DNA of 64,000 nt from an uncultured Solibacteraceae bacterium (GTDB lineage: Bacteria; Acidobacteriota; Terriglobia; 20CM-2-55-15), in assembly GCA_964584785.1 (NCBI GenBank), contig CAZPBY010000012.1, positions 56,590 to 120,589 on the forward strand, written 5' to 3'. Below the pieces are notes generated by a model that ran no database searches, was not told the DNA's origin, and was given only the letters and a program-made list of their open reading frames with translations. How positions within the stretch are numbered: position 1 is the stretch's first letter; the number at the start of each line of letters is the position of its first letter. Positions 2,224-54,884 of this stretch are shown here, piece after piece. Position numbers and translations under genes: made by a program.

Positions 2224-2288
2224 TCTTACCTCCTTAAATTTCTGTGCGATAATTCTGTCACCCGGTCATCAAAGAAATACTATTTTCA

Positions 2289-7096: not shown

Positions 7097-7103
7097 CGGC
7101 ATT

Positions 7104-7141: not shown

Positions 7142-7215
7142 ACCGGCCGTTAAATCTTGTAAATGGACGCTGGAGGGTTGCACAAAATCTGTCATCCATC
7201 GTCAAATCGCGGGAT

Positions 7216-10212: not shown

Positions 10213-10276
10213 AGCAACGGCCTCGCCAGACACTGGCAACGCAACTCCGCCATAGAGTTGTTTCCGCTTCAAAGTG

Positions 10277-10321
10277 CCATCCGAATGATAGTGTCGGTCA
10301 TCATCCGGATGGTTTCCTCCC
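10277..10321 (+). terminator. Putative intrinsic terminator of gene 7216-10212.
   Basis: Stem ccatccgaatgat (10277-10289) / atcatccggatgg (10300-10312) matches at 12 of 13 positions and is followed by tttcc. Confidence 0.4.
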
Positions 10322-10457
10322 GATTCGTCAGGCTTAATGCGTCTTCCTGATTCTCAACATTCTCACGTAAAAACACGCATCTGCGCCTTAGTGCGCAATG
10401 GCCGATCAACTGCGTTAGCGGAAGCCGGTTGAAAAATTCACGAGGAGGTGAGCAGAA

Positions 10458-32235: not shown

Positions 32236-32257
32236 TCTGAAAAACCTCTAAGATCTG

Positions 32258-37000: not shown

Positions 37001-40000
37001 TAACACTGCAATCGGGGCTTGTGGCAGCCACTGCTTCGACGGACACCGTTGCTCCCTCGTCCACGATAACTTCGCCTGCTACTGGGGCGGCCTTCAGCTT
37101 CGGTAGTACCTTGACGATAACCGGTACGGCCGCTGACACCGGTGGTGGCGTGGTCGGAACAGTGGAAGTATCCACGGACGGTGGTGTTACCTGGCGCCGA
37201 GCGACGGGCAGGCAGAGTTGGAGCTACACCTGGACAGCTTATACATCGGGATCCATCAACATCAAAAGCAGAGCCGCAGACGATAGCGGCAACCTGCAAG
37301 TCCCGGGCGCCGGCATCAACGTCACAGTGGCAGCACCATTATGCCCATCCACAACTGTATCGTGCTTCAGTCTTTGGAACAGCAGCGCGACTCCTACCGT
37401 TGCCTCTGCCAACGATGCCAGTTCGGCAGAGGTTGGCGTGAAATTCAAGTCCGATGTGAACGGATACGTAACCGCTGTTCGTTTTTACAAGGGCACTCAA
37501 AATACCGGCAACCACATCGTAAACCTCTGGACAAGCGCCGGTACGCTGATGGCAACCGCGCCGACCGTCAACGAAACCGCATCAGGCTGGCAACAGGCCA
37601 ACTTCGCCTCTCCCGTTGCGGTAACCGCCAATACGACCTACGTTGCTTCTTACTTCACGCCCACGGGTTTCTATTCTTATTCACGACCATACCTTACATC
37701 CGGCTTCGACAACGCGCCATTACATGCGCTCGCGGATGTAGCTTCGGGGGGTAACGGAGTTTATCGCTACGGCGTGGCGTCAGGCTTTCCGACCAGTGCC
37801 TATCAGGCATCCAATTTCTGGGTGGACGTTTTCTTCACTACGGCAACACCGTCGGACACGACGCCACCGGTCATCAGCGCGGTTCAGTCCGCCGGTGTAA
37901 CCTCAAACGGAGCGACCATTACATGGAGTACCAACGAGGCATCCGACAGCCAGGTCGAATACGGTACGACCACAAGCTACGGATTGAGCACGCCGGTCGA
38001 TTCCAATCTTGTTTTAAGCCATTCGCAGCAGCTTTCGGGTCTCACTGCTGGAACGTTGTATCACTACCGCGTGAAGAGCAAGGATGCGTCCGGCAATCTT
38101 GCGGTGTCTGCCGACTTCACTTTTTCGACTCCCGCAGGCTGTTCCTGCGACGTCAGTCTTTGGAATAACAGTCCTACCCCCGGCTCCAGCACGGATGGAA
38201 GGGCTCTCGAAATAGGTGTGAAGTTTAAGTCGGACGTGAACGGGTATATCAAAGCGATCAAGTTCTATAAAGGGCCACAGAACACCGGTTCCCATACGGC
38301 GAATCTATGGACCAGCACCGGTACTCAGTTAGGACAGGCTCTGTCCAGCGGAGAAACGGCAACGGGCTGGCAGACCGTTAATTTTTCTTCGCCGATCGCG
38401 ATCACCGCCAATACGGTTTACGTCGCGTCTTACTTCACAACGTCTGGATTTAATGCCGTCACCAACGGCTATTTTACTTCCGGCTTTGACAACGCACCAC
38501 TGCATGCCCTGTCGGACGCAAGTGCCGGAGGAAATGGACTCTACCGATTCGGCTCAACCTCGGGGTTCCCGAACAGCAGCTATCAGGCTTCGAACTACTG
38601 GGTGGATGTTGTGTTTGCCACGACAATCGCCACGGATACCACCCCACCGGTCATCAGCAGTGTCCAGGCGGGATCGATTACAACCACGACCGCCACGATT
38701 ACATGGACCACGGATGAGGCGTCGGACTCTCAGGTCGACTATGGGACCACAGCCAGCTATGGCTCGAGCACTCCGCTGAACTCATCTTCCGTTACGAGCC
38801 ATTCGCAGCAGATTACGGGTCTCACAGCAGGAACGTTGTATCACTACCGTGTCAGGAGCAGGGATGCAGCCGGCAATACAGCCAATTCGTCGGATTTGAC
38901 ATTCTCGACGACTGCCGATACCACAGCGCCGGTGATCAGCAGCGTCCAGGCCGGTTCGATCACAGCCACGTCGACGACGATTACCTGGAGTACAGACGAG
39001 GCGTCGGATTCTCAGGTCGAATATGGAACAACAATCAGCTACGGGTTGACGACGACGCTGAATTCCACTCTCGTCACCAGCCACTCCCAACCGCTTACCG
39101 GATTGGCTGGTGGTACGCTGTACCACTACCGCGTCAAGAGCAAGGATGCAGCCGGCAATCTGGCAGTCTCGGCAGACTTCACATTCACCACAATAGCGCT
39201 GGATACGACGCCGCCGGTTGTCAGCAATGTCCAGGCCGTCTCCATCACGACGACGTCGGCGACGGTCACGTGGAGCACCGATGAAGCATCCGACACTCAG
39301 GTGGATTACGGAACGACGATCAGTTACGGTTCGTCCACTACTCTGAATTCCTCGCTGGTCACCAGCCACTCGCAACCTCTTGCAAGTCTGACGAGCGGCA
39401 CGTTGTATCACTATCGAGTCCGAAGCAAGGATGCAGCCGGCAACCTGACAGTCTCGGCAGATTTCACTTTCACGACTACCGCAGCGGATGTCACTCCTCC
39501 GGTTATCAGCGGTGTTCAGGCGGGTTCGATTACCGCCGCGGCGGCTACGATCACCTGGAATACCGATGAAGCATCGGACAGTCAAGTGGATTACGGCACC
39601 ACGACCGGTTACGGGTCGTCAACAACGCTGAACGCCTCGCTTGTCACCAGTCATTCGCAGCAGCTCACGAGCCTGACCACCGGGACGTTGTACCACTATC
39701 GCGTCAGAAGCAAGGATGCCGCAGGCAACACGGCCGTGTCCGCCGATTTCACGTTCACGACGCTCGCATCCTGCAACTGCGACGTCAGTCTTTGGACCAC
39801 GAGCATCACTCCCGGAAATAGTACGGATTCTCGCGGCGTCGAAGTTGGGGTAAAGTTCAAGTCCGACGTTAACGGTTTCATCAAAGCGATCAGGTTCTAT
39901 AAGGCGAGTCAAAGTACCGGCCCGCACACGGTAAGTCTCTGGAGCAGCACCGGAGCCTTGTTAGGACAGGCACAAACGACGTCGGAAACAGCGTCGGGAT

Positions 40001-40266
40001 GGCAGACGGTGAACTTCGCTACTCCGATAGCGATAACGGCCAACACCGTCTACGTCGCGTCCACATTTTCGCCTTCGGGTTATAACGCCCAGACCGTCTT
40101 CTACTTCAACTCGGGCTTTGACAATCCTCCGCTGCATGCTCCGGATAACGGCTCGTCGGGAGGGAATGGTGTCTATAGGTTTGGGACGACAGCTGGTTTT
40201 CCGACGAGTAGCTATCAAGCATCCAACTACTGGGTGGACGTGATTTTTGCTACTTCGATTCCTTAG
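34087..40266 (+). CDS. 2059-aa secreted multidomain protein. Order of modules: signal peptide; ~3 ANP-type beta repeats; a large DmfA2-like (N,N-dimethylformamidase large-subunit-like) domain; an Ig-like domain; DUF4082 #1; Fn3; DUF4082 #2; 5 tandem Fn3; DUF4082 #3.
   Basis: Three copies of the DUF4082-like module (SLWN..TP.......EVGVKFKSDVNGY..A.RFYKG.QNTG.H..NLWTS.G...Y.AS..W.DV.F). Fn3 units of the form TTPPVIS.VQAGSIT...ATITW.TDEASDSQV.YGTT.SYG..T.LNS.LVTSHSQ.L.GL..GTLYHYRV.S.DAAGN. N-terminal repeats GITLANPSDQ... and GFAIANPNLV... are shared with gene 7216. Confidence 0.8.
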   Translation: MVGRRSCRIRLRTLISLSLLASSRQQAQTPTGISAEASRTVHESAAILTYTNPAGIVVSRAGVNPTEPLKSGLIFVDQTGPTTGITLANPSDQSASPTLILRDESGRETARRTLDLAAKQDSDVTISELFPGLPDGFRGTLAFESDQPLAGNGFRENINAYGESILSSVPAVDSASPLSAEPLVLPHIAAAGGTTDVVLVNTADQRVRGTIRLIGPSGKPLAMRLSDHIGSQFGYEIEAGGVYRGRFESLSAGAAGYAIVTPNDGDSTPTGMLIFQATSGRGLVSEAIVAVNERPTTSARVFVDNATARTGFAIANPNLVSTTVSFALLDANGTAVGKVTTELAPRGYSAVFANELFPQLVDGFEGLLDITAPLPVVPISLMVALNERNDPILTSLDIVDLDHPLESQSLVFPQTSFGLQAAARLIAIEASRDSSAGVILTLSQLDSTQLHSLSLSGSANQSGSQSGKKPVAFAPGNAPRLSVAATCDPLLQNPIMSEYQLTGNPQIEWDVTGAGDSSIQGFASEISVNKGETVFFKVSTPSTSYRLDIYRLGYYAGAGARKITTVNPSVVLPQNQPACLTDSTTGLIDCGNWAVSASWAVPLTAVSGVHIAKLVRQDGSTVSSHIVFIVRDDASTSDLLFQTSDTTWQAYNSYGGNSFYTGSPASRAFKISYNRPFNTRVTNTNSWLFGAEYPMIRFLEANGYNVTYFTDIDTDRRASLLLQHKVFLSVGHDEYWSAAQRTNVENARAAAINLAFFSGNAVFWKTRWENSIDGSNSPYKTLVCYKETHANAKIDPTPVWTGTWRDPRFSPPADGGRPSNSLKGTLFSVNGPRSDAIAVPSTYAPLRFWRNTTVASLSSGQTATFPVGTLGYEWDEAPDGPNAPPGLVTMSSTTLDVSPSYLLNYGSTFGSGIATHQLTLYKHSSGALVFSAGTVQWAWGLDNIHDGSAPAPDVRMQQATINLFADMRAQPLTLQSGLVAATASTDTVAPSSTITSPATGAAFSFGSTLTITGTAADTGGGVVGTVEVSTDGGVTWRRATGRQSWSYTWTAYTSGSINIKSRAADDSGNLQVPGAGINVTVAAPLCPSTTVSCFSLWNSSATPTVASANDASSAEVGVKFKSDVNGYVTAVRFYKGTQNTGNHIVNLWTSAGTLMATAPTVNETASGWQQANFASPVAVTANTTYVASYFTPTGFYSYSRPYLTSGFDNAPLHALADVASGGNGVYRYGVASGFPTSAYQASNFWVDVFFTTATPSDTTPPVISAVQSAGVTSNGATITWSTNEASDSQVEYGTTTSYGLSTPVDSNLVLSHSQQLSGLTAGTLYHYRVKSKDASGNLAVSADFTFSTPAGCSCDVSLWNNSPTPGSSTDGRALEIGVKFKSDVNGYIKAIKFYKGPQNTGSHTANLWTSTGTQLGQALSSGETATGWQTVNFSSPIAITANTVYVASYFTTSGFNAVTNGYFTSGFDNAPLHALSDASAGGNGLYRFGSTSGFPNSSYQASNYWVDVVFATTIATDTTPPVISSVQAGSITTTTATITWTTDEASDSQVDYGTTASYGSSTPLNSSSVTSHSQQITGLTAGTLYHYRVRSRDAAGNTANSSDLTFSTTADTTAPVISSVQAGSITATSTTITWSTDEASDSQVEYGTTISYGLTTTLNSTLVTSHSQPLTGLAGGTLYHYRVKSKDAAGNLAVSADFTFTTIALDTTPPVVSNVQAVSITTTSATVTWSTDEASDTQVDYGTTISYGSSTTLNSSLVTSHSQPLASLTSGTLYHYRVRSKDAAGNLTVSADFTFTTTAADVTPPVISGVQAGSITAAAATITWNTDEASDSQVDYGTTTGYGSSTTLNASLVTSHSQQLTSLTTGTLYHYRVRSKDAAGNTAVSADFTFTTLASCNCDVSLWTTSITPGNSTDSRGVEVGVKFKSDVNGFIKAIRFYKASQSTGPHTVSLWSSTGALLGQAQTTSETASGWQTVNFATPIAITANTVYVASTFSPSGYNAQTVFYFNSGFDNPPLHAPDNGSSGGNGVYRFGTTAGFPTSSYQASNYWVDVIFATSIP
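38641..39770 (+). repeat. Four tandem near-identical ~285-bp coding repeats (Fn3 units 2-5 of the six) inside gene 34087.
   Basis: Fn3 copies 2-5 begin at about 38641, 38921, 39211 and 39496. The more diverged copy 1 begins at about 37861, and DUF4082 copy 2 lies between Fn3 copies 1 and 2. Protein identity between tandem copies is high. The antisense ORF 38782-39585 is a repeat artefact. Confidence 0.8.
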
Positions 40267-42166: not shown

Positions 42167-45100
42167 TTACTGTATGAATTGGAATGCGCCGATATCCCAG
42201 GCGGATCCTATAGGCCGCTTCTTTCCAGCGAAATCCACATCGAACCCGGTCGCATGTAAATCAATTCCCCGCTGGACCGCCGGGTTGTTCGACTTCAGGT
42301 GGAAATTACCGTTCGCCGGATCGACAAACAAATCTGCGTTCGACGGCAGCGATTGAGAATGAGGTCCTTCCTGCCAACCGTTTGAGATGAGGGTTCCATT
42401 CACGAGAATGTTGTAATCACTATCGACTACGGTCGAATCAAACGCAGCGAGTTCAAACGTGCCGAACGGCACGTTAGCAAGGAGATTGTTCCGCACAATG
42501 ATTTTCTTCCCATGAGCAACGCCAATGCCGACACCGTTCAGGGTGTTGTTGAATATTTGGACATCGAGGTTAAAGGTGTACGGATACCTGTCCGATTCAT
42601 CGCCGGCGACGGCGATGCCTGAAGCAGAGTTGGAAATCACGTTGTTACGAATGACAGTTCCGTTCTGGTTCAACAGCGCGCTGAGGGCATAGCCGTTCCG
42701 GTCGAGAATCTGGTTGTTTTCGATGAGGTAGTCCGTCCTGTCGACCGGAACGTTGTCCAATCCCGGAATGACACCGAGCGAAACGATACCGCTCGAAAAC
42801 GCGTTTCCGCCCTTGAGCACGTTGCCGCGGATCGTGACGTTTCTCAATCCCGCTTTCAAATCGATCTGGTCGGTTTCTCCACCATTCGAGTCGGACTGAT
42901 CCAAAAGATTGTTCTCGATCAGAATGTCGCTATGCGTATTGCCCCACAGGAGGCAGCCACCGTCACCCAGGTAATTTCCGGAAATGTATATCGCCTCGCC
43001 ATAGCCTCGTTCGACGACGTTGTTTCGCAGCGTAATGTCCTCGAGATTGCCAAACACGGCGGCGCAGTTGACGTTAACCGCAGCGTGAAAAATCACGCTG
43101 GGTCCCGTGTTCAACAGATCGTGAATGTGCATGTACTCAACGACCGTCGAGTTTCCCGCAAACGCGACGCGCCCCGTGGTTCCGCTTACATCGAATCCGC
43201 GAATGGTGGTGTAGTGATTCGGGAAATCGGTGAACGGCGACTGAACGCCAATTGAAAGTCCGCCGGTAGTAATGCTGACGTTGAACTTGTTCGTGCCGGA
43301 GTAATCCACCCAGGATGGCGCGTCATCGTTCGTGTTGTACTTCGACATGCCATCGAGCGTGAGCCGGTTTGTTCCAATATCGGTGCGCCAGAGGTTGATT
43401 TCCTTGTTTTCGATTTCCGGCGTGTCGGATGTTGCTTGACGCGCGCTGTAGTACACGATCACGTTGTTTGTGGCCAGAGCAGCATTGACCGCAGTCCACT
43501 GCTCGTTCGGCCGATCGGTCGCAAACCTCTTCCATGGATGTGCAGCGCTTCCATCGCTGATCAAGCCGGTATAAGTCGGATCGACATAGAAAGCGGTTTG
43601 ACTCTCGGCCGACAGTACGGCGACGGTTGTGCTCGCCGTGTCGGTGACGATGCCGTCGCTGACAGTGAGATCAAAGCCGTACACTCCTGCCATCGTGAAC
43701 GAAGCTGTCGTGGTGAGTGCCCATGGCGCCGAAAACACCGCCTGCGCCGGCCCGCTTGTCTGCTTCCACTCCACGGTGTAAGACACATCGTCGACGCCGC
43801 TCACATGCCCGAACAGACTCACGTCGCGCACAGGAAGAGCGATGGTTTTCAGCGGTCCTGTATCCACGGTGATCGAAACAGGGTTGACCGTGACCTGGAC
43901 GTCGCTGCTTCCTGAAAAAGGCCCATGTGCCGCCGTCAACCGAAGCTTGTAGTGTCCGGGTGCTGAAAAGTTCGCAGTTGCGGTGAGGGAAGCCGGGTCG
44001 CTGAACGTCACCTCGCCCGGGCCACTTACTTTGCTCCACGTTGTGCCGAAGCCTGCGCTGTGCGGAACCTCTTCCGCCGATCCCGCCATCGTGGCCGCGG
44101 CGGGCAACCTGACGGTCTGGTCCGGTCCGGCGTTCACAGTGATCGTCGGCGACGCCGTTACGGTGAGATCGCTGATGGCGGTATACGGACCTTCCGTCCC
44201 TGTGAAACGCAGGACGTAGGTACCCGCTTCGGAAAACTCGGCGGTACTTTCCGGGAACGCCGAATTGCCGAACGACACGTCGCCCGGGCCGCTCACCTTG
44301 CTCCACAACACGGTGAACGATTCGCTGGCCGGAAATACGGTCGCCGAACCTGCAAGCGAAATCAGTCCCGGCAGCTTGACGTCTTGATTGGGTCCTGCGA
44401 CCACCGTGACGGTAGGTGTCGCGATCACCGTCAGATCGCCGGCCGCCAGCAGAGGAGGATCGTTCGCGGTCAAGCGCAGCACGTAAGTCCCCCACGCGGA
44501 AAATGTCGTTGTGGAAGATGGAGAAGCAGCGTTGTCGAACGTAACGTCGCCCGGGCCGCTTATCTTGGTCCACAGTATCGTACCGTTGGCGCTCAGGCCT
44601 TCGACGGTTCCGGGCAGAGTCAGCGACGCCGGCAATTTGACGTTCTGAGTGGGACCCGCATTCACGGTAAGCGCGGGGGCAACGGTTATCGTGATGTCGC
44701 TCGACGCACTAAACGGTCCGTCTGTCGACGTCAGCCGCAAGACATACGCTCCCCAGATAGAGAAGGCAGCGGTCGAATTGACAGATGACGCATTACTGAA
44801 CGTGACGTCGCCCGGGCCGCTGACTTTGCTCCACGATGTCGCGAACGCAGCGCTTGCGGGCGTTGAATTCGCCGTGCCGGCAAGCGTCGCCGTAGCCGGA
44901 AGCTTGATGTTCTGATTTGCCCCGGCATTCGCCGTGATCGTCGGTGTTGTCGTTATCGTCACATCGCTGGTTTCGCTGAAGGGACCGTCGCTGGACGTCA
45001 ATCGGAGGACATAGGTGCCCCACGCCGAGAAAGTCGCTGTCGTATTCAAAGAGGCTGCATTCGCAAATGTGACGTCGCCCGGGCCGCTCACTTTGCTCCA

Positions 45101-48100
45101 GGCTGTCGCGAATGCACCGCTCGCCGGAGTCGAAGTGCCGGATCCAGACAGTGTGGCCTCCGCGGGCAGCTTGACGTTCTGATTCGCCCCGGCGTTCGCC
45201 GTGATCGTCGGAGTAGTCGTCACTGTCAAGTCGCTTGTCTCGCTGTATGGAGCATCGGTCGCCGTCAGCCGCAACACGTAAGTGCCCCACGCCGAAAAAC
45301 TCGCGGTCGTGCTTAAGGACGACGCGTTGCTGAACGTGACGCTCCCGGGACCACTCACTTTGCTCCAGGAAGTTGCAAACGTCGCCGTCGCCGGAGTCTC
45401 CGTCGCTGCGCCGGCCAGGGATGCCTCGGCGGGCAGCTTTACATTCTGATTGGCCCCAGCTGTAGCCGTAATGGTCGGGCTGGCGGTGATCGTCACGTCA
45501 CTGCTGGCGTTGTGAGGTCCGTCCGAGGCGGTCAGCCGCAGCACATAAGTTCCCCACGCCGAAAAACTGGCTGTTGTGGCGGGCGACGTCGCATCAGCGA
45601 AGGTCACCTCGCCCGGTCCACTGACTTTGCTCCACGCTTTCGTGAACCCAGCGGAGGCAGGAGTTTCACTGGCACTACCGGAAAGCGTAGCCGTCGCAGG
45701 CAGCTTAACGTTCTGATTGGCTCCCGCCGAAGCCGTGATCGTCGGCGTGGCGGTAATCGTCAGTTCGCTGATTGCACTGAACGGCCCGTCTGTTGCGGTC
45801 AGGCGCAAGACGTACGTGCCCCAGGCTGTGAAATCCGCGGTAGTGGCGACGGAATTTGGATTGGCGAACGTGACGTTTCCTGGTCCGCTCACTTTGCTCC
45901 ACACAGTCGTGAAGCCCGTACTGGCTGGGGTTTCGGCCGCAGCAGCTGCAAGCGTGCCAGAGGCCGGCAGTTTCACATTTTGATTAGGGCCGGCGGTGGC
46001 CGTGATCGTTGGCGTCGTGGTAATCGTGACATCGCTGATTTCGCTGAACGGGCCATCCGTCGCTGTTAACCGCAGGACATACGTTCCCCATGCAGAAAAA
46101 CTCGCGGTTGTGCTCGAGGACGCGGCGTTAGCGAATGTGACATCGCCAGGACCGCTCACTTTGCTCCACGCAGTCGCGAATCCGGCGGCCGTCGGAGTTT
46201 CAGTCGCAACTCCGGCGAGCGCTGCCGCAGCGGGGAGTTTGACATCCTGATTGACGCCCGCGGAGACAGCAATCGTGGGTGTGGTGATGATCGTCACCTC
46301 GCTGGTGGCGCTGAAAGGGGTGTCCGTCGCCGTCAGCCTCAAGACATATGTTCCCCATGCGGAAAAACTCGCCGTCGTGTTCAAAGACGCAGCGTTAGCG
46401 AACAAGACGTCGCCGGGACCGCTGACCTTGCTCCACGCCGTCGCGAATCCAGCCCCCATCGGCGTTTCACTCGCACTTCCCGCGAGTGCTGCCGCAGCAG
46501 GCAGCTTCACATTCTGATTAGGTCCGGCCGCTGCAGTGATCGTAGGTGTTGTGATGATCGTAACGTCACTCGCCGCATTGAACGGTCCGTCCGTCGCAGT
46601 CAAACGCAGGACGTAGGTTCCCCACGCCGAAAAAGTCGCTGTTGTGACTGGAGACGCCGCATTTGCGAAAGCGACATCGCCTGGACCGCTCAGCTTGCTC
46701 CATGCGGTGGCGAATCCCGCGCTCAACGGGATCTCACTGGCATTGCCCGACAGCGTAGCGGCCGCAGGTAGCTTCACATTCTGATTGGCTCCGGCGCTGA
46801 CCGTAATGGTCGGTGCTGCGGTTACTGTGAGTTCGCTGATCACACTGAAGGGACCATCCGTCGCGGTTAACCTCAAGACATATGTCCCCGACGCTGAGAA
46901 ATCCGCCGTCGTGCCCGGAGAGGCTGGATTGGCGAACACCACGTTCCCAGGGCCGCTTACCTTGCTCCATAACGTTGTGAACCCGGCGCCGCGCGGTGTC
47001 TCACCGGCAATTCCGGCAAGTACGGCCGACGCAGGCAGCATGATGTTTTGATTGGCACCGGCGGTGGCGGTGATCGTGGGTGTGGTGACGATTGTCACGT
47101 CACTCGACACACCGAACGGTCCGTCCGCCGCGGTCAAACGCAGCACGTAGGTGCCCCACGCCGAAAAAGTCGCTGTTGTGACTGGAGACGCCCCATTTGC
47201 GAAAGCGACATCGCCGGGACCGCTGACCTTGCTCCACGCGGTGGCGAATCCCGCGCTCAACGGGATCTCACCCGCATTGCCGGACAGCGTCGCGGCCACA
47301 GGGAGCTTCACATTCTGATTGGCACCGGCGCTTACGGTAATGGTCGGTGTTGCGGTTACTGTGAGTTCGCTGATCACACTGAAGGGACCATCCGTCGCGG
47401 TTAACCTCAAGACATATGTCCCCGACGCTGAGAAATCCGCCGTCGTGCCCGGAGAGGCTGGATTGGCGAACACCACGTTCCCAGGGCCGCTTACCTTGCT
47501 CCACAACGTTGTGAATCCGGGGCCGAGCGGCGTCTCACCGGCAATTCCGGCAAGTACGGCCGACGCTGGCAGCATGATGTTTTGATTGGCACCGGCGGTT
47601 GCGGTGATCGTGGGAGTGGTGACGATTGTCACCTCACTCGCCGCATTGAACGGTCCGTCCATCGCAGTCAAACGCAGGACGTAGGTTCCCCACGCCGAAA
47701 AAGTCACCGTTGTACCTGGAGAGGCAGCATTTGCGAAAGCGACATCGCCCGGCCCGCTCACCTTGCTCCACGCAGTTGCGAACCCCGGACTCATCGGCGT
47801 TTCACTGGCATTGCCCGACAGCGCAGCGGCCAAAGGGAGCTTCACATTCTGATTGGCTCCGGCGCTGACCGTAATGGTCGGTGTTGTGGTTACTGTCACT
47901 TCGCTGATCGCAATGAAGGGACCATCTGTCGCGGTTAACCGCAAGGCATATGTTCCCCATGCCGAGAAATCGGCCGTCGTGTTCGGCGAGGCTGGATTAG
48001 CGAATAGGACATTCCCGGGGCCGCTTACCTTGCTCCATAACGTTGTGAATCCGGAGCCGAGTGGTGTCTCACTCGCAATTCCGGCAAGTACGGCCGACGC

Positions 48101-50113
48101 AGGCAGCATGACGTTTTGATTGGCACCGGCGGTTGCGGTGATCGTGGGTGTGGTGACGATTGTCACGTCACTCGACACACTGAACGGTCCGTCCGTCGCG
48201 GTCAATCGCAGGACGTAAGTTCCCCACGCCGAAAATGTCGCAGTTGTGCCTGGAGACGCCGCATTGTTGAAAGCGACATCGCCCGGACCGCTGACTTTTG
48301 TCCACAATACGGCAAACCCGGCGCCCGCAGGAGTCTCGGTCGCTGTTCCGGTGAGCGTAGCGGCGGCAGGTAGTTTCACGTTTTGATCAGAGCCGGCATT
48401 TACAGTGATCGTCGGTGTCGCCATGACAACGACGTCGCTGCTCTCGGAATACGGCCCATCGCTGGCAGTCAGTCGTAGAACGTACTTGCCCGATGCCGTG
48501 AAACTGGCGGTGGTGCTTGTGGCCGACGGCGTCCCGAAAATGACGTCGCCGGGTCCACTAACCTTACTCCACAATACCGCGATTCCGGCACCTGCCGGAG
48601 TCTCGCTGACCGTTCCCGAAAGGTTGACTCCGGCCGGCAATTTCACATTCTGGTCCTGACCTGCATTGACTGTAATGGTGGGGGCGGCCGTTATAGTGGT
48701 GTCGCTACTTGTACTGTGAGGGCCATCTGTTGCCGTGAGGCGCAACACGTACGTGCCCCACGCCGAGAACGTGGCAGTCGTTGCCGCAGACGATGGATTT
48801 GCGAATGCCACATCACCGGGCCCGCTGACCTTACTCCACGACAAGGAGATCCCCGGATTCGCCGGGATCTCCGTTGCGGCTCCTGCAAGCGGAGCCGCGG
48901 CAGGCAATTTGACGAACTGGTTGGCTCCGGCAACGGAAGTGATCGTAGGTATGGTCGTTACGGTCGTTTCACTATTGCTGCTGTAAGTCCCGTCACTGGC
49001 CGTCAGGCGCAGGACATATGTTCCCCACGCCGAGAAAGTCGCTGTCGTAACCGCTGCCGAGGGGTTGGCGAACGACACTTCGCCGGGTCCGCTTACTTTA
49101 CTCCACGAGGCCGAGAGGTTCGGGCTTGATGGTATCTCATTAATCTCACCGGTCAGTGTCGCGGAGGAAGGCAGCTTGATCTGCTGGTCTGACCCGGCGC
49201 TCGCAACAACGGTCGGCGACACGATGACGCCCACATCGCTGCTCGCGTTGAAGGGGCCGTCGATAGCGTTGAGTCGCAGTACGTAAGTACCGACAGCCGA
49301 AAAGTCCACGTTCGTTGCAGGTGATGCCGGGTTAGAAAAGGTAGCTATTCCCGGGCCACTAACCTTCTCCCAGAACACGGTAAAACCTGGACTCACCGGA
49401 AACTCACTCGCAGTTCCGGAAATCGTCAGGCTGCCGGGCAGCCTGAGGTTCTGGAGTGGCCCGGCACTCACATTGAAAGTGGGGGCAGCTGTGATGGTTA
49501 CGTCGCTGCTGCCGGCTTGCACATTATTCGACACCGACAATCGCAGAACGTATATACCGGCTAAAGAGAACGTAGCAGAGGTGTCGAAGGATGAAGGATT
49601 GCTAAACGCAACAAGACCAGGTCCACTGACCTGAGACCAGGAAGGTACGAATTTTCCCCCGGCATTAGAGTCCGAGTAGGCGGTTCCGTGCAGACTGACG
49701 CCGCTTGGCAGGACGATAGCCTGGTTCGGTCCGGCACTGACCGTGATGGTAGGACGCATCACGAAGTTGAGCCGGTTGGATGTCAATGCACCCATCCGCA
49801 CATAGACAGGTCCTGTGACGCTGTCCGCAGGTACGGTTACTACCAGTTTGTTCGAGGCCGCGGAATTTACAGTGGCCTGTGCAGTGGTGTTGCCCTTCCC
49901 TGGAAACACCACCAGGTTCAGGGACGGCGTCGTCGAGAATCCGCTTCCCATGATCTCGACTTTGGAACCGATCTGCGCTTCCGACGGACTCAACTCCCAC
50001 AGTTGCAGGCCGGACTTCGCGGCTTGAGCAAATGCTCCTGCGGCGACGATGATGGCTATGGCTAACCATCTCGTCGCGAACCGCAACCAATTTTTTGAAT
50101 GACTTTGTGACAT
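42167..50113 (-). CDS. Giant (~2648 aa) secreted cell-surface protein built as IPT/TIG + about 22 tandem PKD/Ig-like domains + C-terminal right-handed parallel beta-helix domain (putative polysaccharide lyase or glycanase).
   Basis: Signal peptide MSQSHSKNWLRFATRWLAIAIIVAAGAFAQA. Start chosen at 50113 with GGGGAG upstream; the ORF track starts at 50227. About 22 units of ~89-95 aa of the form PTIT..AGANQNVKLPA...L.G.A.ETP...GF...WSKVSGPG.V.F.N..S...TA.FSAWGTYVLRLTATDGPFS..S.VT. C-terminal ~500 aa carry beta-helix repeats (NN.I.., G..V.G., and so on) and end in SAWDIGAFQF. Confidence 0.85.
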   Translation of the reverse strand: MSQSHSKNWLRFATRWLAIAIIVAAGAFAQAAKSGLQLWELSPSEAQIGSKVEIMGSGFSTTPSLNLVVFPGKGNTTAQATVNSAASNKLVVTVPADSVTGPVYVRMGALTSNRLNFVMRPTITVSAGPNQAIVLPSGVSLHGTAYSDSNAGGKFVPSWSQVSGPGLVAFSNPSSFDTSATFSLAGIYVLRLSVSNNVQAGSSDVTITAAPTFNVSAGPLQNLRLPGSLTISGTASEFPVSPGFTVFWEKVSGPGIATFSNPASPATNVDFSAVGTYVLRLNAIDGPFNASSDVGVIVSPTVVASAGSDQQIKLPSSATLTGEINEIPSSPNLSASWSKVSGPGEVSFANPSAAVTTATFSAWGTYVLRLTASDGTYSSNSETTVTTIPTITSVAGANQFVKLPAAAPLAGAATEIPANPGISLSWSKVSGPGDVAFANPSSAATTATFSAWGTYVLRLTATDGPHSTSSDTTITAAPTITVNAGQDQNVKLPAGVNLSGTVSETPAGAGIAVLWSKVSGPGDVIFGTPSATSTTASFTASGKYVLRLTASDGPYSESSDVVVMATPTITVNAGSDQNVKLPAAATLTGTATETPAGAGFAVLWTKVSGPGDVAFNNAASPGTTATFSAWGTYVLRLTATDGPFSVSSDVTIVTTPTITATAGANQNVMLPASAVLAGIASETPLGSGFTTLWSKVSGPGNVLFANPASPNTTADFSAWGTYALRLTATDGPFIAISEVTVTTTPTITVSAGANQNVKLPLAAALSGNASETPMSPGFATAWSKVSGPGDVAFANAASPGTTVTFSAWGTYVLRLTAMDGPFNAASEVTIVTTPTITATAGANQNIMLPASAVLAGIAGETPLGPGFTTLWSKVSGPGNVVFANPASPGTTADFSASGTYVLRLTATDGPFSVISELTVTATPTITVSAGANQNVKLPVAATLSGNAGEIPLSAGFATAWSKVSGPGDVAFANGASPVTTATFSAWGTYVLRLTAADGPFGVSSDVTIVTTPTITATAGANQNIMLPASAVLAGIAGETPRGAGFTTLWSKVSGPGNVVFANPASPGTTADFSASGTYVLRLTATDGPFSVISELTVTAAPTITVSAGANQNVKLPAAATLSGNASEIPLSAGFATAWSKLSGPGDVAFANAASPVTTATFSAWGTYVLRLTATDGPFNAASDVTIITTPTITAAAGPNQNVKLPAAAALAGSASETPMGAGFATAWSKVSGPGDVLFANAASLNTTASFSAWGTYVLRLTATDTPFSATSEVTIITTPTIAVSAGVNQDVKLPAAAALAGVATETPTAAGFATAWSKVSGPGDVTFANAASSSTTASFSAWGTYVLRLTATDGPFSEISDVTITTTPTITATAGPNQNVKLPASGTLAAAAAETPASTGFTTVWSKVSGPGNVTFANPNSVATTADFTAWGTYVLRLTATDGPFSAISELTITATPTITASAGANQNVKLPATATLSGSASETPASAGFTKAWSKVSGPGEVTFADATSPATTASFSAWGTYVLRLTASDGPHNASSDVTITASPTITATAGANQNVKLPAEASLAGAATETPATATFATSWSKVSGPGSVTFSNASSLSTTASFSAWGTYVLRLTATDAPYSETSDLTVTTTPTITANAGANQNVKLPAEATLSGSGTSTPASGAFATAWSKVSGPGDVTFANAASLNTTATFSAWGTYVLRLTSSDGPFSETSDVTITTTPTITANAGANQNIKLPATATLAGTANSTPASAAFATSWSKVSGPGDVTFSNASSVNSTAAFSIWGAYVLRLTSTDGPFSASSDITITVAPALTVNAGPTQNVKLPASLTLPGTVEGLSANGTILWTKISGPGDVTFDNAASPSSTTTFSAWGTYVLRLTANDPPLLAAGDLTVIATPTVTVVAGPNQDVKLPGLISLAGSATVFPASESFTVLWSKVSGPGDVSFGNSAFPESTAEFSEAGTYVLRFTGTEGPYTAISDLTVTASPTITVNAGPDQTVRLPAAATMAGSAEEVPHSAGFGTTWSKVSGPGEVTFSDPASLTATANFSAPGHYKLRLTAAHGPFSGSSDVQVTVNPVSITVDTGPLKTIALPVRDVSLFGHVSGVDDVSYTVEWKQTSGPAQAVFSAPWALTTTASFTMAGVYGFDLTVSDGIVTDTASTTVAVLSAESQTAFYVDPTYTGLISDGSAAHPWKRFATDRPNEQWTAVNAALATNNVIVYYSARQATSDTPEIENKEINLWRTDIGTNRLTLDGMSKYNTNDDAPSWVDYSGTNKFNVSITTGGLSIGVQSPFTDFPNHYTTIRGFDVSGTTGRVAFAGNSTVVEYMHIHDLLNTGPSVIFHAAVNVNCAAVFGNLEDITLRNNVVERGYGEAIYISGNYLGDGGCLLWGNTHSDILIENNLLDQSDSNGGETDQIDLKAGLRNVTIRGNVLKGGNAFSSGIVSLGVIPGLDNVPVDRTDYLIENNQILDRNGYALSALLNQNGTVIRNNVISNSASGIAVAGDESDRYPYTFNLDVQIFNNTLNGVGIGVAHGKKIIVRNNLLANVPFGTFELAAFDSTVVDSDYNILVNGTLISNGWQEGPHSQSLPSNADLFVDPANGNFHLKSNNPAVQRGIDLHATGFDVDFAGKKRPIGSAWDIGAFQFIQ
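43660..49730 (-). repeat. ~6 kb array of about 22 tandem coding repeats (period ~267-285 bp) inside giant gene 42167-50113. Within it, 46250-48120 consists of near-identical 534-bp higher-order (two-domain) repeats.
   Basis: Plus-strand artefact ORFs at 46785, 47319 and 47853 are near-identical and spaced 534 bp apart. Minus-strand artefact ORFs 46734-46970 and 47268-47504 are identical over their first 50 aa. The translated protein shows two near-identical 178-aa blocks. Confidence 0.85.
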
Positions 50114-50288
50114 GACACTAGCTCCCCAGTGTCCTGTCCTTGGCTCGTGTCGTGTGTGAGCTAAACTATCTTGCTTGCGCTCACTTACTCCACCTGCCGG
50201 CCATACTGCCGGCAAGATGGACCACATCGAAACTATTCGTACCCGAGGACGGACTATCTGTGCAGCCTATCGAATGAACGCGTCGTTT

Positions 50289-51875
50289 CTACGAGGGTTT
50301 ACCCTCAACCGGAAACAGGACCGTTTTATCGACAAGGCGAAAAAGAAAAGCACCTACCGTAAACGAACACATTGCAAATACCGTCGGCATGCCGACCGCC
50401 CAAAGCTGCAACATCGAGCGGGAGACGGTAGCCCACGCTGTAAACCTGCTCCCAATCATGATTCCAAGCGCGCCCAACCCGCACGTTGCGCCAAGCTTGA
50501 GAGCGAACACACGCAACGAACTCCATCCCAGAGGACCGAAACTCCTCTGGGCCTTCCATATCATGTAAATCGTATTGCTGATCGACGCCAGCGACACCGC
50601 AATAGGCAGGCCGGGCAATCCGATCAGGGCGACAAGTCCTATTGCAGCGGCCGTATGAACACCCACGAAGATAAGCGTACTGATGAGAGGTGTTCTGGTG
50701 TCCAGATTCGCGTAAAAGAGCGTTTGAGTGACGCTGACGATACGGCCTAAGAAGAGGTCTGGAATCAAAAACCGGATGATCACGCTGGTCAGTATCGCGT
50801 CCGTCCTTGTAAATCCTCCTCTGCCGAAGAGCAGCATCAGCAAAGGCTCTGCCGTAAGAGCCAGCCAGATGCACACCGGCAGACCCACGCACGCCAGGAG
50901 CTGGAGGCTTTCGAAGAAGGCTTTCCTCTGAGCTCGCAGATCGTTCGCCGACGCATGCTTCGCGATCAACGGCAGTGTTACTTGTACGACACTACCGAGA
51001 AGGATGCCGCCCATCGCCTGCACGATCCTGGCGGCATAACGCATCACCGTGACACTTCCGCTGCCCAGGAACGAGGCCAGCAGATTCTGGAGAACGGTCC
51101 CGCTCTCACTGACAATGTGCCCTGCCAGTGGATGCCGGAATGATCGGATGATTTCCTTCAATGTCGTTTCACCCGGTTGAAGGACCCACCTATAACGGAA
51201 CCCTTCTTTGCGGAGCGCGATGAAGAGAGCGGTCACCTGAACCGCACCACCCAACACCATTCCGACGGCTACCGCGCGTACACCAAACTGCCCGCGGCTG
51301 AGAATCAGCACGATCGTCGTCATGATGTTTCCGACAAGTTTGCCTCCGGACGAGATCAGGTATCGATGGCGCGCATACAATACCGACTGCAAAATCGAAG
51401 ACAGGCCCTGGCACAGCAGGATCCAGAATGCCGTCCGGCTCAGCCACACGGCCAGGCCGATCGTTTGCGAAGTCAAACCCGGAATCTGAAGCGGGACGAT
51501 AGCCGTCGACAACAATGTTCCAGCCGAACACACCACGAGCAGCGCCACGAACGCCGTTGTGAGTACATTTCGCAGCAGCGCCCATCCCAACTCGTCGCCG
51601 CGTCCGAAATGCTCACTGAACACGGGAACCAGAATCTTGGGACACTGTATCGAGAAGACGCCAATGAGGAGCGTCGGAATAGTCAGTGCGGTGAGGAGCG
51701 CGTCGGTTTGATAACCGACACCGAAAAAGTTCAGGATTAGTGCGTCGAGAACGAATCCGCTGACGACGCCGGCACCCGAGAGAACGGCGATGGTGCTCGC
51801 GTTCTTGAATAGATAATGTTTTGAACCGATTTTATGAGCAGTCATGAAGGTTGAATTAACGCGTCCTTTCGTCAC
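50289..51875 (-). CDS. MurJ/MviN-family (MOP superfamily) polysaccharide or lipid-linked oligosaccharide flippase.
   Basis: 528 aa, about 14 TM helices. The N-terminal region (GFVLDALILNFFGVGYQTDALLTALTIPTLLIGVF...VPVFSEHFGRGDE) parallels the MurJ N-terminus (ARDAIVARIFGAG..TDAFFVAFKLPNLLRRIF...VPILAEY). Confidence 0.75.
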   Translation of the reverse strand: MTKGRVNSTFMTAHKIGSKHYLFKNASTIAVLSGAGVVSGFVLDALILNFFGVGYQTDALLTALTIPTLLIGVFSIQCPKILVPVFSEHFGRGDELGWALLRNVLTTAFVALLVVCSAGTLLSTAIVPLQIPGLTSQTIGLAVWLSRTAFWILLCQGLSSILQSVLYARHRYLISSGGKLVGNIMTTIVLILSRGQFGVRAVAVGMVLGGAVQVTALFIALRKEGFRYRWVLQPGETTLKEIIRSFRHPLAGHIVSESGTVLQNLLASFLGSGSVTVMRYAARIVQAMGGILLGSVVQVTLPLIAKHASANDLRAQRKAFFESLQLLACVGLPVCIWLALTAEPLLMLLFGRGGFTRTDAILTSVIIRFLIPDLFLGRIVSVTQTLFYANLDTRTPLISTLIFVGVHTAAAIGLVALIGLPGLPIAVSLASISNTIYMIWKAQRSFGPLGWSSLRVFALKLGATCGLGALGIMIGSRFTAWATVSRSMLQLWAVGMPTVFAMCSFTVGAFLFRLVDKTVLFPVEGKPS

Positions 51876-53740: not shown

Positions 53741-54884
53741 ATGACCGATAAATATTGAGGTGGCGGGCAGCGAGCTGTTTCAACGAAAACATCTCCTCGA
53801 CTCTTTCACGTCCGGCGATGCCAAGACGCGTGGCTTGACCCGATTGGTCCAGGAGCAATTCGATCTTCTCCGCCACACCTTTGTATTCACCTTGTGGCAC
53901 CAGAAATCCGTGGATGCCATTTTCGATGAGCTCGGCACTTCCCCCGCCATCCGTAACGACGACGGGCTTTCCCGCGGCCATGTACTCCATTACCGAATTC
54001 GATATTCCTTCCGTGAACGTGCATAGAACTCCGATGTCCATCTGCTGTATCAGCGGCTCCACATCGGTTCGCTGCCCCAGAAACTGGATTCGGTCGCCGC
54101 CGGGGACTACCAACTGCCTGCAAGCTTCGAGGTTCTTGCCGCCGCCAACCATCACAAAAATGACGTCGTCTCGCTTTGCAACGATACTTTGAGCGGCTCG
54201 AATGAATGTCGGGAAGTCTTTATAGTCGGAGAACTCGGCGACCATGCCGACAACCTTGCGGCCGTCTGCTTTGAGGTCGGATTCGTTTCGGCGAACCGAA
54301 ACCTGGCTGTGGAATCGATTCAAGTCCAGCCCATTGTAGATAACGTGATTCCCACGCGAATCGTGGTGCAGTCCTCGGCTTGCAAACCCGGCTTGTGAGT
54401 TACTGATTCGGGCATCGGCCAGGTACAACATCAGCTTGTGCCATTGCCAACGAGGCCCGCTTCCTGAAAAGGCGTTGCGCAATGTGGCGTTGATGATTCT
54501 GATTCCCATCAAACGAGCCAGTGGCCACGCATAAGACATGGCCATCTCGCTATTGGTGTGAATGATATCCGGCCGAAACTCGCGGAGAATCCGGAGCAGT
54601 CGGGTGAACACGCTGGGATCCCATCGAAACCGCCTCAAGAGGTAGACCAGCGGAATTCCGAGCTTTTGAATCTCCGCGACATAAAACTGTTCCGTTCCCA
54701 TGGTGACGACCAATGCATCGATCGATTGGTCGGCATTCAGCGCCTTCAGCAGCTCGCAAATCTGACGCTCCTTGCCTCCGACCCGCAGGCTGTCAACGAG
54801 GTAAAGGACGCGGACATTCGACCGAATGGTGTCGCTTATATCCGGCATCGCTTCAGCCGCTTGTGTGATGTAACCAGACTTCAT
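53712..54884 (-). CDS. Glycosyltransferase family 4.
   Basis: VLYLVDSLRVGGKERQ N-terminus (GT4 N-terminal domain). C-terminal EGISNSVMEYMAAGKPVVVTDGGGSAELI. Confidence 0.8.
   Translation of the reverse strand: MKSGYITQAAEAMPDISDTIRSNVRVLYLVDSLRVGGKERQICELLKALNADQSIDALVVTMGTEQFYVAEIQKLGIPLVYLLRRFRWDPSVFTRLLRILREFRPDIIHTNSEMAMSYAWPLARLMGIRIINATLRNAFSGSGPRWQWHKLMLYLADARISNSQAGFASRGLHHDSRGNHVIYNGLDLNRFHSQVSVRRNESDLKADGRKVVGMVAEFSDYKDFPTFIRAAQSIVAKRDDVIFVMVGGGKNLEACRQLVVPGGDRIQFLGQRTDVEPLIQQMDIGVLCTFTEGISNSVMEYMAAGKPVVVTDGGGSAELIENGIHGFLVPQGEYKGVAEKIELLLDQSGQATRLGIAGRERVEEMFSLKQLAARHLNIYRSFVRNTARSN

Follow-up and report, generated by a model that had tools for sequence, protein, structure and literature searches.

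A 7.9-kb gene on the minus strand of the window (the whole 64,000-nt stretch of DNA analysed here, from an uncultured Solibacteraceae bacterium) probably encodes one predicted secreted protein with the domain order signal peptide, IPT, PKD (22+1) and beta-helix, in which the PKD array acts as a spacer and the C-terminal beta-helix domain is the conserved, functional part. We hold this explanation as a whole to be probable, well short of certain. As bacterial proteins of variable length go, a kind already known, the product is large but not out of the ordinary; most of the array is old, and only a central stretch of six units bears the marks of recent duplication. The gene, its conserved neighbour and its domains are as follows.

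42167..50113, minus strand: giant PKD/beta-helix gene, complete (2,648 aa plus stop; from the ORF list and translation)
50289..51875, minus strand: MurJ/Wzx-like flippase gene, the conserved neighbour, directly upstream of the giant gene (PF03023, E=8.7e-61)
50021..50113, minus strand: Sec-type signal peptide MSQSHSKNWLRFATRWLAIAIIVAAGAFAQA/AK (slash, predicted cleavage), without a lipobox cysteine (from the translation)
49751..50020, minus strand: IPT/TIG Ig-like domain (PF01833, 24.0 bits for the isolated segment against a cut-off of 20.9)
43880..49750, minus strand: units 1-22, tandem type-A K319L-like PKD domains of 267 nt each
43613..43879, minus strand: unit 23, the family-typical type-B PKD domain before the beta-helix (matches the consensus of alignment A1)
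42170..43612, minus strand: C-terminal right-handed parallel beta-helix domain of 481 aa, presumed carbohydrate-active (AlphaFold2, Foldseek and profile matches)

Architecture of the giant protein and its locus

The open frame of the giant gene runs on upstream to an ATG at 50227 (ORF 42167..50227, minus strand). The 2,648-aa product, starting at M39, is recorded in NCBI as an exact sequence (124,484-nt contig) and the 2,686-aa version is absent there, while a GGGGAG precedes the ATG at 50113 by ~8 nt. The signal-peptide cleavage site was placed by eye on the translation, following the usual n-h-c pattern (A-x-A). In the translation and profile scan we found no LPXTG, PEP-CTERM, lipobox or transmembrane anchor and no C-terminal sorting signal (the protein ends in ...AWDIGAFQFIQ), nor any secretion-system signal apart from the Sec signal peptide. 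The term "surface protein", used in a preliminary description of this DNA, was an assumption, the signal peptide being present and no anchor found, though attachment by an unrecognised mode is possible; the protein would presumably be carried beyond the outer membrane. That description also missed the array's probable role as spacer of a conserved, presumed enzyme belonging to an exopolysaccharide locus. A promoter and terminator scan of 40-52.5 kb returned nothing above shuffled expectation.

The K319L-like PKD profile PF22352 gave 23 separate matches in this one ORF (E=1.5e-210, 682 bits against a gathering cut-off of 27). The same description had counted about 22 PKD-like coding repeats at 43660-49730, and was right that they are real, coding and PKD-like; there are 23 in-frame units of 89 aa, spanning 43613-49750, with a period of 267 nt according to TRF. 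Their SGPG/SGPA anchors lie exactly 89 aa apart over 18 consecutive intervals, and among units 1-22 only unit 19 (261 nt) and unit 22 (270 nt) depart from the common length. When modelled with AlphaFold (pLDDT 93-99), unit 23 matched 2yrl, 2e7m and AAVR PKD domains with a probability of 1.0 and a target-normalised TM of 0.70-0.75. The eukaryotic KIAA0319/AAVR PKD domains belong to the same family (PF22352) as the array units; their host proteins are unrelated, and the likeness is confined to the fold of the repeat unit. A model of four tandem units, built with the protein's own units as alignment, was poor overall (pLDDT 65, pTM 0.31), with low confidence at the domain junctions, and its domain cores formed beta-sandwiches with only moderate confidence. 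The IPT/TIG module occurs also in a paralogue within the window (20791-23937) and in homologue P0028.

By its gene content, the surrounding locus is classed as a PrsK/PrsR (XrtA/PEP-CTERM-type) exopolysaccharide locus, which as defined in PMC1569441 holds PrsK/PrsR, an exosortase, PEP-CTERM substrates, FemAB and an amidotransferase. PrsR scored 606 bits against the TIGR02915 cut-off of 502.6, and PrsK, whose gene is cut by the end of the window, 296.9 against 300 (TIGR02916). The locus further contains a FemAB-like gene, GT4 glycosyltransferases, a sulfotransferase, deacetylases, a DegT aminotransferase, an AsnB-type amidotransferase, Wzy_C and the MurJ gene; the matches to the FemAB equivalog TIGR03019 (137 against 260) and the amidotransferase TIGR03108 (564 against 817) mark related proteins below the equivalog cut-offs. 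No exosortase (EpsH/XrtA) was seen among the window ORFs scanned, and the locus may extend past the window; homologue P0004 adjoins an exosortase EpsH gene.

For the beta-helix domain we recovered 171 relatives, the best at 53% identity; almost all are proteins of 480-700 aa with one PF22352 domain, and an exhaustive search gave 1,342, again mostly of 480-700 aa. A scan of genome contigs with this domain brought up distant relatives only, at 43% identity or less, in Rokubacteria, Pirellulaceae and others, while the names given to related proteins (Vicinamibacterales, Acidobacteria, Blastocatellia) point towards Acidobacteriota. In nearly all homologues a type-B PKD domain precedes the beta-helix. 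The homologues P0002 (locus L001) and P0262 (locus L017) likewise have a MurJ-family gene next to them, and both loci have in common with the window GT4 (64-66% identity), FemAB (44%), MurJ-family (28-29%) and UDP-glucose dehydrogenase genes (68% and 46%, respectively), to which the P0002 locus adds a deacetylase (54%) and the P0262 locus a DegT gene (52%). More distant homologues (35-44% identity) were not in exopolysaccharide loci, and homologue P0010 is found next to an HK97-type capsid gene in a region of phage-like character, a setting shared with tailspike depolymerases. The number of type-A PKD domains was 0 in P0002 and P0004, 1 in P0028, 9 in P0262 and 22 in the window, and these counts indicate that the length of the spacer changes readily from lineage to lineage. 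The idea that no other family member has such an array was rejected, given the nine such units of P0262.

Divergence and age of the PKD units

Most units of the array share only 55-75% DNA identity; among the 17 units outside units 7-12 the range is 40-77%, and dS between them exceeds 1, so that synonymous sites are saturated. Most of the array is old, and dN/dS of array units at 0.06-0.26 indicates that the protein sequence is kept by purifying selection. Since the old units are saturated at synonymous sites, virtually no identical tracts are left in them for homologous recombination.

Unit 23 stands apart: it shares only 20-32% identity with units 1-22, but 64% with the second PKD domain of P0028 and 51-52% with the single PKD domain of P0001 and P0002. 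The low identity led us to reject the idea that units 1-22 are recent copies of an ancestral unit 23. The closest relatives of units 2-22 are found within the same protein, and unit 1 comes nearest to those of the paralogue (20791-23937) and of P0262. As PKD units cluster within each protein, the expansions were separate.

The central units form a higher-order repeat, which comprises the following features.

46544..48145, minus strand: higher-order repeat of three 534-nt two-domain blocks, units 7+8, 9+10 and 11+12 (from DNA identity and dS)
47351..47503, minus strand: 153-nt exact repeat, second copy, in unit 9, offset by 534 nt from the first copy
46817..46969, minus strand: 153-nt exact repeat, first copy, in unit 11; the longest exact repeat

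The blocks occupy 48145-47612, 47611-47078 and 47077-46544, and their pairwise identities are 87.1, 88.4 and 93.4%; they differ mutually at 35-69 of 534 positions, with a bias towards synonymous sites. Odd units (7, 9 and 11) are 89-97% and even units (8, 10 and 12) 85-90% identical to one another, as against ~67% for neighbouring units; unit 6 is related more distantly to the even units (75-79%), and units 5, 13 and 14 share 58-73% DNA identity with units 7-12. Within the repeat dS is 0.07-0.42 against more than 1 elsewhere; the two-domain (178-aa) blocks named in the preliminary description are thus borne out, as a repeat far younger than the rest. The longest exact repeat, at 153 nt, compares with 12.4 on average and 17 at most in shuffled sequence and with 22 in the rest of the window, and 13 of the 15 exact repeats of at least 25 nt lie at a lag of 534 or 1068 inside 46.5-48.1 kb.

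Other parts of the preliminary description needed narrowing. Blocks "almost identical" at 46250-48120 applies to units 9 and 11 only, which differ at 8 of 267 positions; the repeat ends at 46544, and unit 13 (46546-46280) lies outside it. Where several identical 150-bp stretches had been reported, there is one, that of 153 nt. The proposed recombination hotspot holds for ~1.6 of 6.1 kb, that is, for units 7-12, and not for the rest of the array. The claim was to be downgraded if a dot-plot showed only repeats below 80% DNA identity; units 7-12 exceed that figure (85-97%), whereas the 17 others taken alone all lie below it.

A possible, if rather unlikely, alternative to recent duplication is continuing concerted evolution, with repeated gene conversion among old units homogenising their sequences while copy number stays stable. 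It is favoured by the almost four-fold difference between the halves of one block pair, in which the 8 differences of units 9 and 11 compare with 27 between units 10 and 12 (Fisher p=0.0013); the unequal ages that these values suggest are in line with gene conversion or with a second exchange at a later time. The informative sites conflict as well, 47 of them setting block 1 apart from the other two, 20 block 2 and 13 block 3, a mosaic not predicted by simple duplication alone. However, conversion alone would not make odd and even units alternate strictly in just these six contiguous units and leave units 5, 13 and 14 as divergent as they are, and duplication of a two-unit block plus one later exchange would explain both the alternation and the mosaic. 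Duplication and gene conversion employ the same machinery and are not mutually exclusive.

Under the reading by recent duplication, the six central units would stem from a recent triplication of the two-domain block, part of which was homogenised later still. RecA-type unequal exchange would be possible essentially only in this higher-order repeat, where identical tracts measure 25-153 nt, and would add or remove 534 or 1,068 nt, equal to two or four domains, with the frame kept.

Fold and presumed activity of the beta-helix domain

The AlphaFold2 model that includes the beta-helix domain (pLDDT 93.6, pTM 0.95) is all-beta, with short strands in successive coils. Foldseek matched it to the phage depolymerase Kp32gp38, GH28 enzymes, the HK620 tailspike and phage "right handed beta helix" proteins with E-values down to 3e-9, although TM-scores to known enzymes were low (0.48 or less). 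The family profile matched PDB 9rx2, a "parallel beta-helix repeat protein" for which a literature search found no paper, at 8e-11, and also GH110 and AlgE4 (structure 2pyg, E=0.002), these alignments to PDB entries spanning generic repeats only. The Pfam Beta_helix profile PF13229, carried by most homologues according to precomputed annotation, reached 18.4 bits on the giant protein, below the cut-off of 25.9, while NF041518 scored 26 against a cut-off of 25, and the tail of the domain resembles a choice-of-anchor-Q domain. Profile scans brought no CAZy-type family above threshold and no assignable catalytic residues, and neither a PHROGs search nor a single-sequence search of PDB gave a match. 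Four charged residues of the domain (E248, E295, K342 and R351 in the numbering of alignment A1) are invariant. From its fold and genomic context, we infer that the domain may cut or modify the exported polysaccharide, as a putative depolymerase, lyase or epimerase.

Phage tailspikes and capsule depolymerases (Kp32gp38, 9qrm; the HK620 tailspike; K64-1 S2-4) are among the best PDB and BFVD matches and, like the giant protein, are built on a right-handed beta-helix, but TM-scores are low (0.2-0.48) and sequence identity is 8-15%. Unlike tailspikes, the giant protein is chromosomally encoded and begins with a Sec signal peptide; there is no sign of trimerisation or of a virion-attachment domain. 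Also comparable are AlgL, PslG, PelA and BcsZ, accessory glycanases and lyases encoded in exopolysaccharide operons, and AlgE1-7, secreted modular mannuronan C5-epimerases with a right-handed beta-helix and a variable number of accessory modules. The giant protein resembles all of them in being carbohydrate-active (presumed here) and encoded within the cluster of its own polymer, and resembles the AlgE enzymes further in combining a secreted right-handed beta-helix with variable accessory modules. Beyond generic parallel beta-helix repeats it has no significant sequence relation to any of these proteins, none of which is known to carry a long Ig-like array.

The protein might instead be a matrix scaffold or adhesin, a reading we judge unlikely, in which the 23 PKD domains would be the working part, as multivalent binders of polysaccharide, and the beta-helix a tip that binds glycan without catalysis, such that the protein cross-links or organises exopolysaccharide or mediates aggregation. 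PKD domains of some chitinases and proteases do bind insoluble polymers. Purifying selection over whole PKD domains is more than a passive spacer strictly needs, the beta-helix has no identified catalytic residues, and a link between PEP-CTERM-type loci and floc formation is reported (PMC9850573). What is conserved across the 1,342 relatives, however, is the beta-helix and not the array, most having a single PKD domain; the invariant charged residues likewise sit in the beta-helix, and the closest structural relatives are depolymerases and glycosidases.

Copy number, known systems and proposed origin

The one other public assembly that we found (L011) is 100% identical to the window outside 48236-47132, and 43 positions differ inside that interval, where it contains 48 of 58 bases of an Illumina TruSeq adapter and broken reading frames. 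This bore out the earlier caution about assembly of the array and flags adapter contamination in a public contig. L011 splits the gene into two contigs at about 43971-43977; it is collinear with the window and has the same unit count over units 1-21. We considered whether its variant bases were copies of paralogous units and rejected this, as they were not consistently so and part of the difference was adapter sequence. When metagenome contigs were scanned with the unique N-terminus, only JACXTT010030216.1, the L011 contig, was returned, and no within-species length variant was found.

A true gene with more two-domain blocks (collapsed in assembly) or fewer (spuriously expanded) than three would make the copy number of the higher-order repeat an assembly artefact. 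The confinement of the L011 differences to this region, the adapter, the split and an exact repeat as long as a typical short read all lend something to this idea, and further copies that barely differ from blocks 2 and 3 may have been collapsed. Still, it is quite improbable, for at least three distinct blocks must exist given their many and synonymous-biased differences, the frame and 267-nt register are intact throughout, and L011, for all its errors, agrees with the window in unit order and unit count. For practical purposes, 46.5-48.1 kb is the stretch in which short-read assemblies of the giant gene are unreliable.

The nearest known counterparts of the array are the periscope proteins (SasG, Rib, Sgo_0707 and others; PMC8201768), in which similar repeat DNA lets intragenic recombination change repeat number and thereby protein length. 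Like the giant protein, they string folded Ig-like domains together in tandem and carry a functional domain at one terminus, and the two-part repeat of SasG (E-G5) is comparable to the two-domain block described here. In the giant gene, unlike in periscope proteins, highly similar DNA is limited to 6 of 23 units, and no cell-surface anchor was found on the product. Whereas periscope proteins vary in repeat number from strain to strain, the variation seen here is between lineages (0, 1, 9 and 22), and the one other assembly has the same count. The terminal domain of the giant protein is C-terminal and resembles a polysaccharide enzyme, while that of periscope proteins binds a host ligand; the organism, too, differs from periscope hosts, being an uncultured environmental bacterium with an exopolysaccharide locus.

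The close relatives suggest a starting point, an enzyme of ~600 aa with a signal peptide, one PKD domain and a beta-helix, encoded beside a flippase in the same kind of PrsK/PrsR-regulated locus. In the lineage of the window, an IPT plus type-A PKD module would have been added at the N-terminus and amplified by tandem duplication, giving 22 type-A PKD domains. With 24 Ig-like domains of 3.5-4 nm each, the protein, if extended, would span an estimated ~80-100 nm. It may be catalytically active, rod-like and still changing in length.

One could speculate further, though we think it very unlikely to be right, that the array is an evolvable "ruler", whereby the number of PKD domains sets the distance from the cell, or the depth in the exopolysaccharide layer, at which the beta-helix enzyme acts, and hence the thickness of the capsule or matrix or the length of the polymer; through the young repeat a population could then adjust this distance, always in frame, by ~7-8 nm at a time. 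Were it true, a periscope-type mechanism would be at work on the enzyme of an environmental diderm bacterium and not on a pathogen's adhesin.

The gene described here represents no new kind of biology: giant proteins with many PKD domains, nested repeats in coding arrays and changes of repeat number by recombination are all well known. If our preferred reading of an enzyme on a spacer is true, a conserved accessory enzyme of ~600 aa, encoded in exopolysaccharide loci, is able to acquire an Ig-like spacer of great length (0, 1, 9 or 22 extra domains in different lineages), which would hint at selection on the enzyme's site of action relative to the cell in soil or sediment bacteria.

Architecture of the giant protein

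A long minus-strand ORF (42167..50227) was found to hold the entire repeat region, and its translation is matched 23 separate times by the K319L-like PKD family of Pfam (PF22352, E=1.5e-210), confirming the coding PKD-like tandem array of the preliminary description, though with 23 units rather than about 22. The gene likely starts at the ATG at 50113 rather than at 50227, because the exact 2,648-aa product is recorded in NCBI, where the longer version is absent, and because GGGGAG precedes that ATG. The domains of this product, hereafter the giant, were found in the following order.

Features of the giant gene
N-terminus, minus strand: Sec-type signal peptide (...AGAFAQA↓AK, read from the translation)
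After the signal peptide, minus strand: IPT/TIG domain (PF01833, 24.0 bits against a cut-off of 20.9, isolated segment)
49750-43613, minus strand: 23 PKD units (PF22352 matches and SGPG/SGPA spacing)
48145-47612, 47611-47078 and 47077-46544, minus strand: higher-order repeat, three 534-nt copies (block identities 87.1, 88.4 and 93.4%)
After unit 23, minus strand: C-terminal domain, 481 aa (right-handed beta-helix in the AlphaFold2 model)

The SGPG/SGPA motifs are spaced exactly 89 aa apart over 18 consecutive intervals and then by 87, 89, 89 and 90 aa, and Tandem Repeats Finder returned a period of 267. The array comprises 15.6% Ala, 15.0% Thr, 11.9% Ser and zero Cys. The protein ends in ...AWDIGAFQFIQ, a marginal match to 'choice-of-anchor Q' (26 bits, cut-off 25), and no sorting signal was found after this tail.

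A matrix of all 23 units placed most pairs at 55-75% DNA identity, with units 1, 20 and 23 lower. Within units 7-12, which form the higher-order repeat, units 7, 9 and 11 are mutually 89-97% identical and units 8, 10 and 12 85-90%, odd and even units sharing only ~67%. Unit 23, of a different PKD type, shares only 20-32% identity with units 1-22. The two-domain, 534-bp repeat proposed in the preliminary description is thus present in three copies, but it ends already at 46544, and its blocks, described as almost identical, are highly similar (87-93%). Instead of several identical 150-bp stretches there is one, the longest exact repeat being 153 nt (46817-46969 = 47351-47503), against a mean of 12.4 nt and a maximum of 17 in shuffles of the region and a maximum of 22 nt in the rest of the window.

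Relatives and genomic context

Querying with the beta-helix domain alone yielded 171 relatives (best identity 53%), almost all 480-700 aa long and with one PF22352 domain each, and an exhaustive HMMER search yielded 1,342, likewise mostly of this size and composition, plus a few long members. Unit 23 is the PKD domain common to the giant and these single-PKD relatives, being 64% identical to the second PKD of the homologue P0028 and 51-52% identical to the single PKD of two others, P0001 and P0002. P0028 (802 aa) consists of a signal peptide, IPT, one type-A PKD (the type of units 1-22), a type-B PKD (the type of unit 23) and the beta-helix, and P0262 (2,111 aa) of a signal peptide, about 630 aa, IPT, nine type-A PKDs, a type-B PKD and the beta-helix; the type-A count is therefore 0, 1, 9 or 22, depending on the lineage. 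Since PKD units group within each protein and not between proteins, array growth or homogenisation took place independently in each lineage.

The giant gene comes directly after a flippase gene on the same strand:

50289-51875, minus strand: MurJ/Wzx-like flippase gene

Around it lie genes for a polysaccharide deacetylase, three GT4 glycosyltransferases, a sulfotransferase, a FemAB-like protein, a DegT aminotransferase, a hexapeptide acyltransferase and PrsR (TIGR02915, 606 bits, cut-off 503), and on the other side those for an ATP-grasp enzyme, Wzy_C, a PMT_2-like protein, GT2, a nucleotidyltransferase and an AsnB-type amidotransferase. A PrsK-like histidine kinase (62587-63999, minus strand) scored 296.9 bits, just below the cut-off of 300, because the window end cuts its gene. 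An exopolysaccharide locus of the same kind was described for the PEP-CTERM/EpsH system (PMC1569441); no exosortase gene was found within the window.

The closest relatives with readable context sit in the same type of locus: the gene of P0002 (612 aa) directly follows MurJ, that of P0262 adjoins MurJ and that of P0004 (599 aa) adjoins exosortase EpsH. The P0002 and P0262 loci share with the window GT4 (64-66% identity), FemAB (44%), MurJ-family (28-29%) and UDP-glucose dehydrogenase (68% and 46%) proteins, the former also a deacetylase (54%) and the latter a DegT aminotransferase (52%). More distant relatives (35-49% identity) are located elsewhere, including a phage-like region and an IS-rich island. 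One of them, P0010 (622 aa, with a PKD and the beta-helix; 48-49% identity), is encoded among phage-like genes (L015, an SRR22868756 contig, 876-10543) beside an HK97/Linocin_M18-type capsid, Gp80 and a second beta-helix protein, and so phages use this enzyme family too, presumably for depolymerisation.

The window encodes further large or related proteins. The N-terminal module of the giant has a paralogue in a 1,048-aa protein (20791-23937, plus strand; 42% identity over the first ~500 aa), which carries a signal peptide, IPT/TIG, four type-A K319L PKDs, an FN3-like segment and a beta-helix domain of another kind (PF13229, 20.6 bits; weak NosD-like match), and thus one spacer module serves two different beta-helix proteins in the locus. 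A third beta-helix protein (24131-25843, plus strand, 570 aa) was matched only weakly, and in every case under the cut-off, by Beta_helix, Chondroitinase_B and NosD-like profiles. Convergent with the giant gene is that of a second giant secreted-looking protein (34087-40266, plus strand, 2,059 aa) with a DMFA2_C-like domain (E=1e-99), three DUF4082, Big_7 and five purple-acid-phosphatase-N/FN3-like domains. A HAF-repeat protein (TIGR02913; 19057-19968, plus strand), of a repeat type usually found in PEP-CTERM proteins, ends in ...IHGFVMTP with no obvious PEP-CTERM tail, and two plus-strand ORFs, 7216-10212 (998 aa) and 10458-11789 (443 aa), had zero Pfam/NCBIfam matches at 1e-5. The Wzy_C (O-antigen-ligase-like) and PMT_2-like genes (30871-33706, minus strand) adjoin genes whose giant products are very rich in Thr, Ser and Ala; the inter-domain TTTPTIT segments could conceivably be O-glycosylated.

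Repeat history, recombination and assembly

Nei-Gojobori estimates separated two age classes. Ordinary unit pairs have a dS above 1 (saturated) and a dN of 0.12-0.21, and are old duplicates kept by purifying selection; the higher-order repeat has a dS of 0.07-0.42 and a dN/dS of about 0.2, and its units are recent duplicates on which selection still acts. Between units 9 and 11 there are 8 differences in 267 sites, against 27 between their partners 10 and 12 (Fisher p=0.0013), and informative sites in the three blocks conflict (47, 20 and 13 for the three possible outliers), indicating that part of the two-unit block was re-exchanged or converted after duplication. The array may still be changing in length; concerted evolution without copy-number change is a rival reading of the higher-order repeat.

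To be efficient, RecA-dependent exchange requires roughly at least 25-30 nt of identity ('MEPS' work in E. coli). As 13 of the 15 exact repeats of at least 25 nt in the whole array lie at lag 534 or 1,068 within 46.5-48.1 kb, the plausible recombination substrate is the higher-order repeat only. Exchange there would keep the frame and change the protein in steps of two or four complete domains, and synonymous divergence would effectively shield the other 17 units; the recombination hotspot first proposed for the whole array would thus apply to this 1.6-kb stretch and not to the remainder.

The alternative that the number of blocks is an assembly error draws support from a second public assembly of the gene (locus L011 on contig JACXTT010030216.1, GCA_016853205.1). 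It is collinear with positions 50576-43977 of the window (99.35% identity). All 43 differences fall within 48236-47132, in or bordering the higher-order repeat, the sequences being identical elsewhere. Positions 3378-3435 of L011 (window ~47199-47132), inside the repeat, resemble a TruSeq Illumina adapter (48 of 58 bases, background at most 31), and the reading frame is broken there. The corruption of this assembly thus coincides exactly with the stretch of greatest similarity between copies; it is evidence that short-read assemblies fail in the higher-order repeat and supports the assembly caution of the preliminary description. The window version is in frame, with three mutually distinct blocks that differ mostly synonymously, and so at least three blocks are real, although further near-identical blocks may have collapsed; the two assemblies probably derive from one population, making their matching unit count weak evidence.

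The coding array is genuine and well delimited, and its higher-order repeat of two domains is young; the class is a familiar one, of which this array is a large representative. The main additions are the identification of its host protein and single-PKD relatives, the narrowing of its recombination-prone part and the evidence of short-read assembly failure there.

Fold of the C-terminal domain and proposed role

An AlphaFold2 model of unit 23 and the C-terminal domain, built on 60 homologues, is confident (pLDDT 93.6, pTM 0.95); it has a beta-sandwich for the PKD unit and, after it, a right-handed beta-helix. In Foldseek the PKD part matched KIAA0319/AAVR domains and the helix part matched, with low TM-scores (<=0.48), Klebsiella phage depolymerase Kp32gp38, GH28 exopolygalacturonase, HK620 tailspike and other phage beta-helix or tailspike proteins. 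The family profile matched PDB 9rx2, a 'parallel beta-helix repeat protein' (8e-11), as well as GH110 galactosidases and AlgE4 epimerase, all PDB alignments running over generic repeats only; Pfam Beta_helix scored under its cut-off on the giant itself. The beta-helix fold is thus established, but the chemistry of the domain is not. A four-PKD model (pLDDT 65, pTM 0.31) was too uncertain to bear on rigidity.

In the best-supported reading, the giant is a secreted enzyme that processes polysaccharide in the exopolysaccharide pathway and is borne by a long spacer of Ig-like domains. The analysis shows directly the order of domains, the conservation of the beta-helix and of its place in the locus, the lineage-dependent spacer length, the repeat ages and the location of identity long enough for recombination. 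It would be exported beyond the outer membrane, its beta-helix domain would be catalytically active and its PKD array would be extended, reaching roughly 80-100 nm (24 Ig-like domains of 3.5-4 nm). The rival reading is a multivalent glycan-binding scaffold or adhesin. In periscope proteins, similar folded tandem domains, whose number is set by intragenic recombination, fix the projection of a terminal functional domain (PMC8201768); the giant resembles them functionally but departs from several of their defining traits, since only 6 of its 23 units are highly similar in DNA, and a surface anchor was looked for and not found. Its likeness to accessory glycanases of exopolysaccharide operons and to the modular, secreted AlgE epimerases is by analogy only.

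The sulfotransferase gene of the locus (54881-55900, minus strand), together with PAPS-reductase-like and CysN/APS-kinase genes in the related P0002 locus (L001, 18600-21442), suggests that the polysaccharide may be sulfated, which, if true, would be relevant to what the beta-helix enzymes act on.
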